From: a bacterium
GTDB taxonomy: Bacteria; Patescibacteriota; Minisyncoccia; UBA11713; 2-01-FULL-45-33
Reading direction: 5' to 3'
NCBI GenBank assembly: GCA_030648495.1
Contig: JAUSHV010000030.1
Location: forward strand, 1 to 34,897
Length of the DNA: 34,897 nt
The position numbers were made by a program, and so were the translations under genes. Shown here piece after piece: positions 15,000 to 28,458 of the stretch. The notes under the pieces are model-generated. The model searched no databases. It was not told the origin of the DNA and worked only from the letters and a program-made list of their open reading frames with translations. How positions within the stretch are numbered: the stretch's first letter is position 1; each line of letters starts with the position of its first letter.

Positions 15000-17900
15000 T
15001 TAAACCACAAAATTTATTAGTCTCTTCGGGACGAAGATGACTTTTCGTGGTTTTTTATTATCTAGCGCAAGCTTAACTTTTTCGCGTTCCAAAGTCAAGC
15101 GCTCGGCTTCAGCCTGCGAAATATTTATCGGCACTTCAAATTTGTCGCGCATTTTGCCATTTACTTGGACAATGAGTTCAAATGTATCTTCTTCAAGTAA
15201 TTTTGGATCAAATTCCGGCCACTTCTCCAAATGAATGGATTTCCAGCCCGAGGCTGGTCCGCCTTGGGCGGATTTACTCCTCATCTTATTCCAAATTTCT
15301 TCTGTGAGATGTGGGGCAAACGGAGAAAGTAATTTTAGAAAAATAGAAAAAACACCATCCACCTTCGCCCCCTCCCCCTTCTCCATATCACTCAACAAAA
15401 TCATCAACGCCGAAATCGCCGTATTAAATTTAAAATCCTCAATATTTTCCGAAACTTGTTTGATGGTTTTGTTAGTGGCTCGCACAAGTCTCGCGCTTTC
15501 AGTTGTCTCGGCACCAAAATTTGCAAGGACACGCATATCCCGCTGCTGCGGGATTGCTCTGCTCGCGCCGTCGCGCTGCGCAAGGTCTTGCAAATCTTGT
15601 GCCTTCGCCAAACTTTTTTTCGCGCTCGCTTCTGCCAAATTCCAAACCCTATCCAAAAACCGCTTAATCCCCAAAATACCGTGCGGGTCCCACGGATATG
15701 AGCCAACTTCGCCGTAGGGACCGATAAACGCCAAGTACATCCGCACCGTATCGCTCCCAAATTTTTTGATATATTCGTCGGGGTCAATCACATTGCCCTT
15801 GGATTTCGACATTTTCTGCCCATCAGGCCCTAAAATTATTCCACGGTTTCTTCTTTCTCTATACGGCTCATCGCCTAATTCTTTGGGAATTAATCCCAAA
15901 TCAAACATTGCCTTATACCAAAAGCGTGAATACAAAAGGTGCATTGTTGTGTGCTCCGCGCCACCGGAATAAAGATTAACCGGCATCCACGCTTTTATTT
16001 TCGCCTCATCGGCAAACGCATCTGCGTTTTTTGGATCGCAATACCTCAAAAAATACCAAGAAGAATCCACAAAAGTATCTAGCGTATCGGTTTCGCGCTT
16101 CGCCGGACCACCGCATTCCGGGCATTTTACTTTCAACCACTTTTCCGCTTTAGCCAAAGGAGATTTCCCTTCGCCAGTCGGCAAATAATCTTTTATTTCC
16201 GGCAAGACCACGGGCAAATCTTTATCTTGCACCGCTTGGACCCCGCATTTAGGGCAATGAATTACCGGTATCGGCACTCCCCAATAGCGCTGCCTTGAAA
16301 CAACCCAGTCGCGAAGCTTGTATTGTGTTTTTATTTTTCCCCCGACAAATTTTGTAATTTCATTTTTTGCTTTTGCAGAATCCATTCCATCAAAACTTCC
16401 TGAATTTATAAGCTCGCCGGCACCTTCCCAGCATTCCGCCTCAATTGCAATTGAAGCCGGTGCTCCCGAGGCAATAGAATCGGCATTTTGTAAAAAATGC
16501 TGTAAAACCGGATTGATAACTTTTCTAATTGGCAATGCAAATTTTTTCGCGAATTCGAAATCGCGCTCGTCGTGCGCTGGGACGGCCATAATTGCGCCAG
16601 TTCCGTAGCCGCCCAAAACATAGTCTGCTACCCAGACTGGAATCTCCTCGCCGTTCGCCGGATTAATTGCCTTAATACCTTTTAGCTCCACACCGGTTTT
16701 TTCTTTGGCCCCTTGTTGGCGCTCGAGCTGGGTTTTTGATTTTGCTTTTTTTAAGTATTCGTCGATTTCTTTTTTGTTTTCAAATAAAGATTTTTCATTG
16801 CCCATTGCAATAAATGGGTGCTCCGGAGCAAACACTAAATAAGTCGCTCCAAACAAAGTGTCCGGGCGCGTAGTAAAAACTTTTATACTTGGCGTGAAAA
16901 GTTTTTTAATACCTTCGATAATTGGCAAAAGCTCTTTCATTTCCTCGTCTTCTGATTGTTCCAGAACATATTTGCCGGTAGCTCTAGACATGTAAAGCGG
17001 GCGCAAAGGTAAACTTGGATCCATTGCTCCGTGCGGCTTATCCGTAAGAATAACCGGTCGCCGAGCTTCAACATGGATTGCAAATTTTTCTGAGGTTACC
17101 AGGCATAATGAATTTCTCCATTCGGCGTCCACCTTTCCTCCGCGCTCAGCTGCAATTTTTTTATAATATTCAAGCATTAACGCACCAATCTCCTCAACGC
17201 TCAAAGATTTTTCGTCTTTACCATTTAATGCGTTTCTTTTTACCATCATGGGGTCAATTTCTGCGCCATCAATGAAAAAACCGCTGTCGTCGGCCAAAAC
17301 CGATAGTTTAGTTTTTCCAGCCAAAGCCCGTGCTTTTTTCTCCGAATTTTCAGCTAAAGTTTTTCCGTCCTCCAAAACATCAAAATCTTTAATGCCAATT
17401 TCTTTAGGTGACTTAAGTTTTATCGCGAGGCCGGCAGCTTTAAAGAGCTTCTGCATGCGCTTGAGCTTTCCTTGATTATTTGAAGCAAAAACAACCTCTC
17501 CTGAATAAGTTGGGGTGCCTGTAATTTCAAACTCAATTTCCGCTCCTTCCGATTTTCCAATCCAATTTCTCTGCGCTTCTTTTATTTCTTCTTTCCAATT
17601 TAATTTTGCGAGCCCGGAAAGAAGCCGTTCGGCATAATCCGTAATTTTAAGCATCCATTGCTTCATTTCTCGCTGAACTACTTCCGAACCGCACCGCTCG
17701 CACTTGCCTCCGACAACTTGTTCATTTGCGAGCACCGTTTTGTCTTTCGGACACCAATTTACCGCCGTGACGGCTTGGTAAGCCAAACCTTTTTTTAAAA
17801 ATTGTAAAAATATCCATTGCGTCCATTTGTAATATTCCGGGTCAGCTGTAATCACTTCGCGGCTCCAATCAAAAGAAGCGCCCATTGAGCGCAATTGTTT

Positions 17901-18239
17901 TCTCATATAATCAATATTTTCATAGGTCCATTTTTTCGGATTTATCCCGCGCTTAATCGCAGCGTTTTCAGCCGGCAGACCAAACGCGTCAAAACCAATC
18001 GGGAAAAGAACATTTTTTCCTTCCATTCTTTTTTTACGCGCAAAAATATCGGGTATTGGAAAAGCGTACCAATGCCCGGCATGAATATTTCCGGACGGAT
18101 AAGGAAACTCTATTAAAGTATAAAAATTTCCGGCCCTAGGCCGGCCAGCCTTGGGCTGGTCTTTCACTTCATAAATCTTAGATCGCTCCCATTCTTTCTG
18201 CCATTTCTTCTCTATTTTTTTGTGGTCAAAGCTAGGCAT
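15000..18239 (-). CDS. leuS: Leucine-tRNA ligase with inserted HAM1-like domain
   Basis: FPYPSGNIHAGH (HIGH), GFDAFGLPAENAA, TTRPDT and GTGAIMAVPAHD.RD (editing), SRQRYWG.PIP, KMSKS. Confidence 0.96.
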   Translation of the reverse strand: MPSFDHKKIEKKWQKEWERSKIYEVKDQPKAGRPRAGNFYTLIEFPYPSGNIHAGHWYAFPIPDIFARKKRMEGKNVLFPIGFDAFGLPAENAAIKRGINPKKWTYENIDYMRKQLRSMGASFDWSREVITADPEYYKWTQWIFLQFLKKGLAYQAVTAVNWCPKDKTVLANEQVVGGKCERCGSEVVQREMKQWMLKITDYAERLLSGLAKLNWKEEIKEAQRNWIGKSEGAEIEFEITGTPTYSGEVVFASNNQGKLKRMQKLFKAAGLAIKLKSPKEIGIKDFDVLEDGKTLAENSEKKARALAGKTKLSVLADDSGFFIDGAEIDPMMVKRNALNGKDEKSLSVEEIGALMLEYYKKIAAERGGKVDAEWRNSLCLVTSEKFAIHVEARRPVILTDKPHGAMDPSLPLRPLYMSRATGKYVLEQSEDEEMKELLPIIEGIKKLFTPSIKVFTTRPDTLFGATYLVFAPEHPFIAMGNEKSLFENKKEIDEYLKKAKSKTQLERQQGAKEKTGVELKGIKAINPANGEEIPVWVADYVLGGYGTGAIMAVPAHDERDFEFAKKFALPIRKVINPVLQHFLQNADSIASGAPASIAIEAECWEGAGELINSGSFDGMDSAKAKNEITKFVGGKIKTQYKLRDWVVSRQRYWGVPIPVIHCPKCGVQAVQDKDLPVVLPEIKDYLPTGEGKSPLAKAEKWLKVKCPECGGPAKRETDTLDTFVDSSWYFLRYCDPKNADAFADEAKIKAWMPVNLYSGGAEHTTMHLLYSRFWYKAMFDLGLIPKELGDEPYRERRNRGIILGPDGQKMSKSKGNVIDPDEYIKKFGSDTVRMYLAFIGPYGEVGSYPWDPHGILGIKRFLDRVWNLAEASAKKSLAKAQDLQDLAQRDGASRAIPQQRDMRVLANFGAETTESARLVRATNKTIKQVSENIEDFKFNTAISALMILLSDMEKGEGAKVDGVFSIFLKLLSPFAPHLTEEIWNKMRSKSAQGGPASGWKSIHLEKWPEFDPKLLEEDTFELIVQVNGKMRDKFEVPINISQAEAERLTLEREKVKLALDNKKPRKVIFVPKRLINFVV
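15243..15272. repeat. Double-hairpin element in frame in leuS (SAQGGPASGW)
   Basis: CCAGCC-CGA-GGCTGG followed by TCCGCC-TTG-GGCGGA. Confidence 0.8.
15510..15603. repeat. ~94-bp nested inverted-repeat element inside leuS
   Basis: Imperfect arms GGCACCAAAATTTGCAAGGAC ... GGTCTTGCAAATCTTGTGCC; inner hairpin ATCCCGC-TGCT-GCGGGAT. Confidence 0.7.
18130..18159. repeat. Double-hairpin element in frame in leuS (QPKAGRPRAG)
   Basis: CCGGCC-CTA-GGCCGG followed by CCAGCC-TTG-GGCTGG. Confidence 0.8.
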
Positions 18240-26164: not shown

Positions 26165-27385
26165 TTAGAGGTGTCTCCTGAGAACAACATTTTCGACTAT
26201 TGCGTAACATAAACGCCAAGTTGCCGCATCTTTCCCTAGAGCGTTAGGATTCTTCAGCGATAAGGCTTGTTCTCCGACAACCGTAATCAAGTCTTCTTCA
26301 AGGTCAGCAAGCATCTTGAACGGATCATCTTTCCAGACGCACTTTTCTTTCTCAACGCGAACAAGGTTACGGAAGCTTGCAAGAATCGGATAAATGAAAC
26401 CGCTCGGGATACGAAAGTCCGACTCTTCATTTGTGAAAATGAGCTCTTCCTTCGGGCCCCGCTCTACTTTATCTACGCCCTTTAGTTTTCCGAACTTGCC
26501 GCCTTTTTCTCCGTCGGCACCTTTCTTGCTCTTGTTATAGACGACTGGTAGCCGAAGATAGATGCGGTCTCGCAACTCAAGTATCTCTGGTAGCAGCGAG
26601 ATATACTTTTCAAGCCGGAAATTGTTTTCCTTCTTATTATTCTCTTTAAAGTAATCTACAACTGCAGCCCGAGAAGAGTAGGCTTTTATCGGATGTGTTT
26701 TTTCGTTGTAACCCTCTGCGTCAAAACATATCAGGTACGATAGAATTTCCTTAATATCGATATCCTTTGGCGTATCACCCAATGCTTCTTCATATTGTTT
26801 GTAAAAGATACGCGGGGCATATGATTTGTCCTTGAGTACAGCTTTGATTTTGTCGAAGCTCCCGAGAAGTTCAAGTGTGCTTTGTTCTTGAACGGGGGTC
26901 GAGTTGTTCCTGGCTTCTATAATAGGTACTACTTCCTCTCTCGTCTTGAATCCCTCAAGACACTCGATTGTTACAAATGCATCTATTTCCTTGCGTTCCT
27001 CTTCTGACAGGCCATCGACATGATTCCTAATCACCCGATATGAGTGACCGCCATCCGCCAAACCATTCATGGCCGGATCAGAAAACTGAAGTTCAACTGT
27101 ATTAGATTTATTGTCAAATCTAACTTCGTCAGCGAGGACGAGAAGTCCACGATTTTTGAAATAAAAGTCTGAGGGCTTATCTCTCAAGCTGTCGCGTATT
27201 TCCTTTGGAACGCGGATCAACTCTTTGGGATCACGAATATTAAGCGCACGCCACTCATTGAGCTCGGCGGGCACATCCGCGACATTTACCACTAGATAGT
27301 ACTTGCCTTTCCCTTTTTCGTCAGCAGGGGTAGGCTGTTTACGAAACGAATAAACGGGGAATTTAATGATTGTTGCTTTGGACAT
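26165..27385 (-). CDS. AIPR-family (abortive infection phage resistance) protein
   Basis: N.RDP, PSDFYFKNRGL, GLADGGHS, IIEARNNSTPV, GFIYPILASFR and NPNALGK motifs typical of AIPR. ATG 27385 chosen. Confidence 0.82.
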   Translation of the reverse strand: MSKATIIKFPVYSFRKQPTPADEKGKGKYYLVVNVADVPAELNEWRALNIRDPKELIRVPKEIRDSLRDKPSDFYFKNRGLLVLADEVRFDNKSNTVELQFSDPAMNGLADGGHSYRVIRNHVDGLSEEERKEIDAFVTIECLEGFKTREEVVPIIEARNNSTPVQEQSTLELLGSFDKIKAVLKDKSYAPRIFYKQYEEALGDTPKDIDIKEILSYLICFDAEGYNEKTHPIKAYSSRAAVVDYFKENNKKENNFRLEKYISLLPEILELRDRIYLRLPVVYNKSKKGADGEKGGKFGKLKGVDKVERGPKEELIFTNEESDFRIPSGFIYPILASFRNLVRVEKEKCVWKDDPFKMLADLEEDLITVVGEQALSLKNPNALGKDAATWRLCYAIVENVVLRRHL

Positions 27386-27418
27386 TTTAGCTTTTGTTAG
27401 TTGCGAATAATTTTGCGG

Positions 27419-27576
27419 CAAATAAAAAGCCGCGAATCCGCGGTCTCACAAAAGCTCACGTCTATAGCCATGAAGCTCTCGCTTGACGGTGCCCAGAACT
27501 TTCGCCATTTCTAGCTATGCCCTACGACTACTGTAGCCGAAGCTACCAGCAACTGACTCTTGCGGAGAAGATCAAT
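27419..27576 (-). ncRNA. Candidate structured leader or ncRNA upstream of AIPR, family not recognised
   Basis: Closing stem 27554-27568/27444-27458; hairpins with TTCG, GAAA and GAGA loops; 3' terminator ACCGCGGATTCGCGGC-TTTTT; upstream promoter. Confidence 0.6.
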
Positions 27577-27582
27577 AAATCC

Positions 27583-27610
27583 ACTCTAGCAGATTAAAAA
27601 AATAATGCAA
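27583..27610 (-). promoter_or_regulatory. sigma70-type promoter for the RNA/AIPR unit
   Basis: Minus strand TTGCAT, 16-bp spacer, TGn-TAGAGT. Confidence 0.5.
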
Positions 27611-27644
27611 GCCCTAAGCAGGCGCCCGCCATCCACAAGCCTCA

Positions 27645-27673
27645 TTGACTTTTAATGTCAGATTTGATATATT
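27645..27673 (+). promoter_or_regulatory. sigma70-type promoter with no downstream ORF
   Basis: TTGACT, 17-bp spacer, TGn-TATATT. Confidence 0.55.
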
Positions 27674-27689
27674 AGCTATATCACCAACG

Positions 27690-27737
27690 GAAAAGATCAC
27701 CCTATAAGGTTTCGTCCTTATGGGGCCTTTTCTTTTT
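27690..27737. terminator. Probably bidirectional terminator
   Basis: CCCTATAAGG-TTTCGT-CCTTATGGGG flanked by GAAAAG and CTTTTCTTTTT. Confidence 0.75.
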
Positions 27738-27747
27738 AGGTTCAAAA

Positions 27748-28173
27748 CTATTTACTATCAACAATATAGGCGGATAAAAAGGTTTCTATTGCGCTTATGG
27801 TTGCGTCTTTTATTTTTGGGTTGCTTTCGGCTACCCATTTTGCAAAGTTATAAAGCTCCTGATTATCCACCTTAAGCCATTTCTTGTTCAAAGATAGAAA
27901 ATAAAACAAAGTTGTCATGGCAATGCGCTTGTTGCCGTTCTGAAAAGGATGGTTTTTGATCATCAAGTAGAAAAGGATTGAGGATTTTTTTATTAATCCT
28001 GGATAGAGTTGTTTGCCTGCGTATGTCTGGAATGGCGCGGCAATGGATCGCTCGAGCGTATTTGTAAAGCGCGTACTGAAATCCGGAATGGGTTCAGACC
28101 ATTGCATGGTTTCCCTGGCTAATCTATGAGCCACATACTCAATATCCTTAATGCCTACTCGTTCTATGACCAT
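27748..28173 (-). CDS. Fic/Doc family toxin
   Basis: IKNHPFQNGNKRIA (Doc-type, K before R); APFQTYAG..LYP. Confidence 0.9.
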   Translation of the reverse strand: MVIERVGIKDIEYVAHRLARETMQWSEPIPDFSTRFTNTLERSIAAPFQTYAGKQLYPGLIKKSSILFYLMIKNHPFQNGNKRIAMTTLFYFLSLNKKWLKVDNQELYNFAKWVAESNPKIKDATISAIETFLSAYIVDSK

Positions 28174-28176
28174 AAA

Positions 28177-28458
28177 TTATTCTTTACCGAGAAGACGCAA
28201 GGTTTCCCCATATTCCTTAACTACTCTTTCGACCGCTTGCTTAATCTCCTTTTTTTTATTTTTCGTTAAAATTCTTGGGCCACCCTTATGCATAAGGTCA
28301 TTTACATATTCCGTTGAAATAGCGTAAGAACGCCCGATCTTGATAGCCGGGACTTGTCCTTTTTTTATACGCTTAAAAACTGCCACATGGCTTATGCCAA
28401 GCATCTTTGCCAACTCTGTTACAGATACATATATAGCCTTTTTCCCTTTATTTTCCAT
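28177..28458 (-). CDS. Excisionase-like HTH protein, putative antitoxin
   Basis: YVSVTELAKMLGIS...IKKGQVPAIKIGRSYAI (HTH_17-like); C-terminal helix VVKEYGETLRLLG; 3 bp upstream of the toxin gene. Confidence 0.8.
   Translation of the reverse strand: MENKGKKAIYVSVTELAKMLGISHVAVFKRIKKGQVPAIKIGRSYAISTEYVNDLMHKGGPRILTKNKKKEIKQAVERVVKEYGETLRLLGKE

Follow-up and report, generated by a model that had tools for sequence, protein, structure and literature searches.

AIPR/AbiU1 proteins (PF10592) are described as single-gene abortive-infection or restriction-modification-linked proteins with a nuclease-like model; they form a widespread defence family, for which the accessible parts of two sources list both mechanism and trigger as unknown (PMC3506569, PMC13064643). 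How a gene of this kind may be kept harmless and be switched on is the question raised by a locus in the 824-kb assembly, 96% complete, of an ultra-small bacterium. The stretch of DNA analysed here, called the window, is 34,897 nt long, and a reading of its sequence alone had picked out, on the minus strand directly upstream of an AIPR gene, a promoter followed by about 150 nt of structured RNA and a terminator. We find this leader RNA to be conserved together with the gene that it precedes, and it is best read as one half of a mobile cassette whose other half is the AIPR gene. As to what the leader does, we are inclined, with some reserve, to see in it a repressive element in which the terminator stops most transcripts and, in this class of leaders, the start codon is masked as well. 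The arrangement is known for other defence genes and, as far as we have found, apparently undescribed for AIPR; no link of the AIPR/AbiU family to RNA was found in the literature searched, the supplement of PMC5737381 with its 224 motifs lying outside that search. A conserved RNA welded to an AIPR gene would provide a handle on how such a gene is kept harmless and switched on, would extend the design of RNA, terminator and toxic gene (ToxIN, AbiF, AbiD1) to a quite different predicted fold, and adds an uncatalogued structured RNA family, found in ultra-small bacteria of the Candidate Phyla Radiation (CPR).

Distribution and conservation of the leader RNA

A protein-side search found an AIPR homologue in 12 of 401 genomes of the class, the source genome included, and a metagenome scan yielded four close relatives. 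After removal of identical copies, five distinct RNA variants were available for comparison, one of the AIPR genes behind them being cut by a contig end. All five variants lie directly upstream of AIPR genes that are 78-87% identical to the one in the window, which bears out the linkage of RNA and gene put forward in the sequence-only reading. Across the variants the RNA is 0.78-0.90 identical, compared with 0.69-0.77 for the nucleotides of the AIPR coding sequence, 0.34-0.46 for third codon positions and 0.11-0.46 for the flanks (115 nt upstream, 150 nt downstream). By these figures the RNA is more strongly constrained than the coding sequence. Neighbouring genes are different at each variant locus, AIPR being the only protein that travels with the RNA; since the identity of the RNA is high against unrelated flanks and the RNA always stands before AIPR, RNA and gene appear to move as one cassette.

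Both matches of an RNA-derived pattern in species-representative genomes adjoin AIPR genes, and the same pattern has no match in viral contigs; a profile scan of viral sequences gave two loci. No copy of the RNA was found by DNA similarity search in 60 relatives. The covariance model built from the five variants reaches further, as it also finds leaders of AIPR genes that are only 44-48% identical; it scores 31.9 bits (E 8e-10) at the leader of locus L006 and 19 bits at that of L005, and a second covariance model scores 58 bits at the leader of L007. In the sample of the phylum a match occurs in three of 401 genomes, including the source genome and one already known, and the sole new locus is truncated. 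Further homologues were sought in the family of genome G204, where none was new, and in the order of the source genome, where there was none. A candidate for an RNA without AIPR, in genome G042 (21.3 bits), was rejected, the match aligning only a small hairpin and a terminator.

Within the source genome the leader RNA is single-copy; an apparent second copy on contig C38 (15.7 bits) turned out to be the 3' end of a 380-aa coding open reading frame (ORF), judged thiolase-like by eye, together with a terminator. The roughly 150 nt after the promoter hold no credible ORF, the longest on the minus strand being 20-24 aa, and indels of 1-2 nt among the homologues argue against coding, so that the leader is taken to be non-coding.

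Promoter, hairpins and terminator

The cassette is made up of the following elements, given in the order of transcription.

27583..27610, minus strand: promoter, with -35 TTGCAT (27610-27605), a 16-nt spacer and extended -10 TGcTAGAGT (27591-27583)
27553..27575, minus strand: P1, the 5'-terminal hairpin, UUGAUCUUC / AAGAGUCAG, with the invariant loop UCCGC (27566-27562)
27529..27551, minus strand: P2 hairpin, UGCUG-G-UAGC-UUCG-GCUA-CAGUA, with a one-base 5' bulge, then UAG
27491..27528, minus strand: P3, long hairpin, GUC-G-UAGGGC ... GUUCUG-GGC, with a one-base 5' bulge, then UAG
27444..27482, minus strand: 3' domain, in which GCGAGAGCU (27482-27474) can pair with AGCUUUUGU (27456-27448)
27420..27443, minus strand: intrinsic terminator, CCGCG-GAUU-CGCGG (27443-27430), then C and UUUUUAUUU (27428-27420)
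27380..27419, minus strand: read-through spacer, GCCGC (27419-27415), a variable stretch, CUAACAAAAGC (27400-27390), AUG
26165..27385, minus strand: AIPR gene, 406 aa, the short stand-alone form, ATG at 27385-27383

What the comparison supports is a succession of hairpins, P1 to P3, followed by a 3' domain that is less certain and by the terminator, and not the one closed domain that had been drawn from the single sequence. P1 is a local hairpin of 9-10 pairs in all five variants, with one-base indels occurring on both strands together, and it competes for the 5' strand with the outer stem of the closed domain. That outer stem has 95.5% pairing yet no covariation, and its C-G pair at columns 14/134 is broken in three of the five variants; in the ensemble, the partner of AGCUUUUGU is GCGAGAGCU, with 7.5 of 9 pairs expected, as against 0.9 with the 5' strand. 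The long UUCG hairpin of the sequence-only reading (27551-27529) had been recognised correctly: as P2 it is 100% paired in all five variants, with one G-C/A-U double change. Its second arm (ATAGCTA/TGGCTAT) gives way to other pairings, being only 73.5% paired, as does a GC-GAAA-GT hairpin (only 70% paired), the GAAA loop belonging to the apical hairpin of P3. This apical hairpin, GCUA-GAAA-UGGC in the window, is swapped in homologues, its loop being GAAA, UUCG or AUUUG among the variants. The remaining hairpin of that arm, AAGC-GAGA-GCUU, is possible but invariant. Within the 3' domain 13 pairs are 100% paired, 11 of them never varying. A three-way junction of GUCRUAG with CUAUAGAC, compatible with the five close variants, was given up because distant leaders favour the long P3 instead.

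Compensatory changes were counted in an alignment of eight sequences (seven in an earlier version), among them leaders whose AIPR genes have no more than 44-48% identity. Of the 23 pairs that make up P2, P3 and the terminator, 13 are changed on both sides, at 97.3% pairing; none of 500 shuffles reaches this, and slid controls show at most two such pairs. Two-sided changes affect four of nine pairs in P2 and seven of nine in P3, where 98.6% of cells are paired, and two of the five terminator pairs show compensatory changes in distant leaders.

Upstream of the hairpins, the pattern TTGCnn-N16/17-TGnTAnnnT stands at the same place in all five variants, its spacer and the surrounding bases diverging, and the RNA would start near 27576. 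At the downstream end a terminator scan finds a site of five G-C pairs at 27443-27430 with the tail CTTTTTATTT, the GC hairpin preceding CUUUUUAUUU, and the U tract ends 34 nt upstream of the AIPR ATG (27385), in agreement with the terminator that had been read just before the gene. With a hairpin energy of -8.5 kcal/mol the site fits the definition of a Rho-independent terminator as GC hairpin plus U tract, and across the five variants its stem is invariant and its loop variable. In the spacer that follows (identity 0.50-0.80), GCCGC and CUAACAARAGC are kept and the bases between them vary. CCGC/GCGG elements recur along the leader, in the P1 loop UCCGC, in the terminator (CCGCGG..CGCGG) and in the GCCGC after the U tract, and are kept in all five variants; in folds of the read-through transcript the 3' arm of the terminator pairs with the downstream GCCGC in all five, the bases involved all being invariant.

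The leader had been described as belonging to no recognised family, and the comparison with Rfam, now run, agrees: no family matches it, the abiF motif included. At gathering score, Rfam 15 finds only one tRNA in the whole window, located elsewhere, and a search of 27300-27760 leaves the folded part of the RNA without a match at E <= 10. The sole row on the minus strand (E 4.2, 27459-27339) is a mammalian long non-coding RNA model without base pairs and covers terminator and spacer only, and a weak match to the trpB motif (25.7 bits vs 59) lies on the other strand, over the terminator of a neighbouring Doc gene. For 14 related loci Rfam gives no match at E <= 0.1.

Leaders of other AIPR genes and the AIPR protein

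Nine classes of AIPR leaders were read, of which A, B and C are homologous, and classes D to I share no detectable sequence with these three. When a single fixed rule is applied, 8 of 19 AIPR loci have a terminator-like site in the 100 nt preceding the gene, and at seven of the 19 (classes A, B, C, D, E and G) the tail of the site ends within 40 nt of the start; among 654 ORFs of the source genome, which served as control, the corresponding rates are 13.8% for 100 nt and 9.8% for 50 nt. At loci L007, L008 and L032 a hairpin and U run can be seen by eye, failing the rule or lying farther away. Of the k-mers compared among the nine classes, only U-tract words of the TTTTAT type are enriched (six of nine classes), and GUAGG, noticed by eye as a possible shared word, is not among the top words. 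Distant AIPR genes are preceded by promoter-leader-terminator units that are either homologous or analogous to that of the window, and wherever an AIPR locus examined here bears an RNA leader, the leader is upstream and on the same strand as the gene.

Of six short AIPR genes examined on Firmicutes plasmids, five lack an RNA leader of this kind and are preceded by a divergent gene for a small helix-turn-helix (HTH) regulator, whereas in the sixth (Pusillibacter) a promoter-leader-terminator unit is present; the RNA is therefore a feature of one branch of the family and not of the family as a whole. That these plasmid genes have an HTH regulator and no leader fits a regulatory role of the leader. 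At the plasmid loci L024-L027 and L029 the regulator is 73-93 aa long, and at two of these loci a gene for an Fst type I toxin follows closely.

In five of the nine leader classes there are two or more hairpins that carry a one-base bulge on the 5' side and (U)AG directly after it. Counted over the leaders, such sites number 12, a figure reached by none of 200 shuffles (3.9 +/- 2.0), and only 2.6% of 654 non-coding windows of the source genome contain at least two. The motif was, however, defined after looking at these very sequences, CTT in place of TAG scores nearly alike (11 vs 12 sites), and three of the five positive classes are not independent, since A, B and C are homologous. A shared bulged-(U)AG motif across AIPR leaders is thus a possible feature of these sequences, to be regarded as a lead only.

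The AIPR protein matches PF10592 over residues 49-374 (E 6.4e-25, 88.9 bits vs a cut-off of 25), which is its only Pfam match at E <= 10 and is shared by all 51 aligned relatives; at E <= 1e-10, 254 proteins match. Its N-terminus, MSK..IKFPVYSF, is conserved from residue 1. With 406 aa it is shorter than the lactococcal AbiU proteins, which are about 570-590 aa long by the alignment note of a review (PMC13064643, accessible part). PADLOC returns a weak AbiU match only, a PDB sequence search nothing meaningful, and the protein atlas AIPR clusters only; no match to an endoribonuclease of the ToxN/AbiQ/CptN/TenpN type was obtained by Pfam, PADLOC or fold comparison.

An AlphaFold model of the protein (mean pLDDT 88.2, pTM 0.61) has no Foldseek match at E <= 0.001. 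With a structure aligner run over its full library, the N-terminal domain is matched to the ParB-like PadC (Z 6.8, root-mean-square deviation 3.0, 100 aligned; model residues 18-165), to ParB-N of pNOB8 (Z 5.7) and to sulfiredoxin (Z 5.0), and larger parts of the model to SspE (Z 4.8, residues 169-395), to a DndBCDE-DndI entry (Z 4.1, residues 171-404) and to BrxU / GmrSD (Z 3.9, residues 28-401). As all Z scores are below 8, these matches are leads only, by which the N-domain of the modelled protein may be ParB/DUF262-like and not a ToxN-type RNase fold. Residues D111-G-G-H114 are invariant and resemble the DGQHR-type motif. The leads from the model fit these invariant residues and agree with the link between AIPR and DndB given in the accessible part of PMC3506569.

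A proposed repressive leader and its rivals

How could such a leader act on the gene behind it? The conserved promoter would start the RNA, P1, P2, P3 and the 3' domain would fold, and the GC-rich terminator would follow. Judging from the terminator sequence, this is where most transcripts would stop, giving an RNA of about 150 nt, and the AIPR message would be confined to read-through transcripts. In the transcripts that read through, the stretch before the terminator (27464-27444, UAGACGUGAGCUUUUGUGAGA) is complementary to the AIPR start region UCUAACAAAAGC..AUGUC; on the strength of this complementarity it may pair with 20 nt around the AIPR start and lower translation, and in all five variants the masking duplex is part of the minimum-energy fold predicted for the read-through leader. 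Termination and a masked start would together leave the cell with very little of a potentially harmful defence protein. The bulged hairpins P2 and P3 exceed what a terminator needs and would probably be where a partner takes hold and adjusts the switch, either AIPR itself or a phage or host factor, which is the step of the scheme that we hold most loosely.

By analogy, this two-step logic would match that shown by experiment for the leaders of AbiD1 and of AbiF. According to the accessible part of PMC12373285, RCd22/AbiF of the C. difficile phage phi027 consists of a sigma-70-type promoter, a 100-130-nt RNA, a terminator and then the gene, and RCd22 lowers AbiF expression by termination, acts in cis and in trans and binds the protein. 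The AIPR cassette shares with the system described there a sigma-70-type promoter, two hairpin motifs within an RNA about 100-150 nt long, and a Rho-independent terminator; it is also alike in having no evident promoter before the gene, in a gene start about 170-190 nt from the RNA start, and in a lowering of expression by termination, which is predicted here. It differs in that AbiF is an Abi_2/HEPN-like protein whereas AIPR would be, by its model, ParB/DUF262-like, and in that the AIPR leader matches neither the abiF motif nor any other Rfam family; binding of the RNA to the protein is shown for RCd22 and would be a possibility for the AIPR leader. AbiD1 of Lactococcus lactis, as far as the accessible part of PMC2661086 describes it, lies just behind a terminator, has a short transcript of 50 nt, needs read-through, is translated inefficiently and is activated by the phage protein Orf1 and by cold. 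AIPR is likewise an abortive-infection gene behind a terminator, with a predicted dominant short transcript, read-through and a structured start; unlike AbiD1, which has a known activator and belongs to another protein family, its RNA is about 150 nt long and contains three conserved hairpins.

Several results weigh against a repressive leader as proposed. For the masking duplex the shuffle tests point both ways. In its favour, the duplex energy is reached by 4 of 300 shuffles for the longer version of the window leader, by 0 and 9 of 500 for the leaders at L016 and L017, and by 8 of 300 for the unrelated leader at L010, which has the same layout; for the shorter version of the window leader the duplex is not significant (46 of 500 shuffles), and at L015 the count is 26 of 500. 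As a general rule masking was rejected, since in 8 of 11 AIPR loci, covering classes B, C, D and F, it is not significant. When the variants exchange leaders and start regions, no preference for the own partner is seen, and as both strands of the duplex are nearly invariant, there is no covariation to support it. The promoter that had been claimed is weak by consensus: it is not picked by a consensus scan and matches at 7 of 12 hexamer positions by hand count, so that the constancy of its pattern in the five variants is what speaks for it. Downstream of the terminator, a weak second promoter-like sequence (TTGCCG-N16/17-TAACAA) can be seen by eye, with a spacing that fits four of the five variants. 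Folded on its own, the window RNA is unremarkable (z -1.18, 24 of 200 shuffles folding at least as well), a result which the sequence-only reading had itself named as speaking against it and which we consider outweighed by the covariation; the seven- and eight-sequence alignments behind that covariation were fitted to the structure of the model and lean towards it. Lastly, a plain attenuator leaves the compensatory conservation of P1-P3 across distant classes unexplained.

This conservation is best accounted for if the terminated RNA, made in excess on account of the terminator, bound AIPR through the two bulged hairpins and kept it inactive in the manner of a type III antitoxin, phage shut-off of host transcription then leading to decay of the RNA and release of AIPR. 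Such an antitoxin, which is the main rival and would be compatible with effects in cis, as in RCd22/AbiF, is possible, although we think it unlikely on the whole. The RNA is conserved beyond what a terminator requires, AIPR is the sole protein travelling with it, and the bulged-(U)AG hairpins are found at least twice in five of nine leader classes. The order of promoter, RNA, Rho-independent terminator and gene, kept in all five variants, is that of ToxIN and of RCd22/AbiF, and the cassette further resembles the type III systems (ToxIN, AbiQ, CptIN, TenpIN) in a terminator that sets the ratio of RNA to message and in the link to phage defence, as laid out in the accessible part of PMC12373285. 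The DUF3800 genes offer another parallel: in the accessible part of PMC5737381, this one protein family is likewise accompanied by 11 unrelated RNA motifs (I-XI), several of which end in a terminator, but these may precede or follow the gene and lie on either strand, whereas AIPR leaders are upstream and on the same strand. Type III antitoxins, however, are tandem repeat arrays, and here Tandem Repeats Finder returns 0 rows at a minimum score of 30, the sole direct repeat being one of 9 nt in two copies. By Pfam, AIPR is not an RNase of the ToxN/AbiQ type, and the fold matches (Z 6.8-5.0 to ParB/sulfiredoxin-like proteins; 4.8-3.9 to SspE, DndBCDE-DndI and GmrSD) suggest dealings with nucleoside triphosphate (NTP) and DNA and not with RNA. 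The bulged motif suffers from its post hoc definition, from CTT nearly equalling TAG and from the homology of classes A, B and C, and five of six Firmicutes plasmid homologues do without such a leader. A wider version of the idea, in which short AIPR proteins in general are RNA-partnered defence effectors whose fast-diverging leaders, with 2-3 bulged-(U)AG hairpins, serve as antitoxin or sensor, seems to us slightly less probable still; if true, it would define a new class of RNA-protein toxin-antitoxin system that joins a non-repetitive structured RNA to a ParB/DUF262-like NTP-dependent enzyme in place of an RNase.

A structured domain followed by a terminator and a gene is also the classical layout of a riboswitch, and the CCGC/GCGG elements, kept in all five variants, would allow alternative pairings; the folded part might then sense a small molecule or a phage product and open the terminator. 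We nevertheless give only a small chance to a sensor of this kind, or to the leader being an RNA cofactor or guide that AIPR needs and takes up as a working part. Rfam has no match, the hairpins form a row without a multi-stem junction, and the alternative pairings rest on invariant bases only; the class is tiny and changes with the protein, whereas one would expect a ligand pocket to be the same in all hosts, and an obligatory cofactor is hard to reconcile with the five of six plasmid homologues that have no leader. That the RNA is an unrelated small RNA or a chance structure, such as a housekeeping RNA missed by Rfam, is scarcely credible. Small signal recognition particle RNA (RF00169) and 6S RNA (RF00013) are indeed not found in the source genome at E <= 1, RNase P RNA being present on contig C40, and the folding of the single sequence is no better than ordinary. 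Against this, the RNA is single-copy, in other lineages occurs only beside AIPR genes, and in its folded part, 27576-27460, is without a same-strand Rfam match at E <= 10; a housekeeping RNA was dropped as an explanation because it would be conserved in the 60 relatives from which the candidate is absent. The repressive leader remains the reading towards which we incline.

Neighbouring genes and further loci

Upstream of the leader RNA lie two genes and their terminator.

27748-28458, minus strand: HTH_17/excisionase-type gene, 93 aa, then Doc/Fic gene, 141 aa (Doc: TIGR01550 DOC_P1, E 2.4e-13)
27700-27725: bidirectional terminator of the HTH-Doc genes, upstream of the leader RNA

The two genes look like a type II toxin-antitoxin pair. 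Since they have a bidirectional terminator of their own, the terminator of the leader is not that of the upstream operon. In a genome of the same genus (G001), genes for an ABC transporter and an M16 peptidase are adjacent, without the cassette, so that about 2.4 kb (HTH, Doc, RNA and AIPR) are extra in the source genome; the AIPR gene is absent from all 19 other genomes of the order.

Other AIPR cassettes have neighbours of their own. An N6_N4_Mtase gene lies beside the cassette at L022 (3572-4072, plus strand), and at L007, L011 and L012 the coding sequence upstream of the cassette is methylase-like by eye; methyltransferase neighbours fit the published link of AIPR with restriction-modification systems. 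At L013 (2824-3922) five tRNA genes stand in a run directly upstream of the AIPR leader. L008 shows a duplication, the first 18 bases of its AIPR gene (ATGACATTTAAATTTAAA) being repeated right after the U tract of the leader, which makes a short upstream ORF that copies the AIPR N-terminus; the locus also contains one in-frame TAG. Elsewhere in the window, the leucyl-tRNA synthetase (1079 aa, 15000-18239, minus strand) carries a Pfam match to the Ham1 family (ITPase-like) at residues 249-333, an unusual insertion or fusion within this enzyme.

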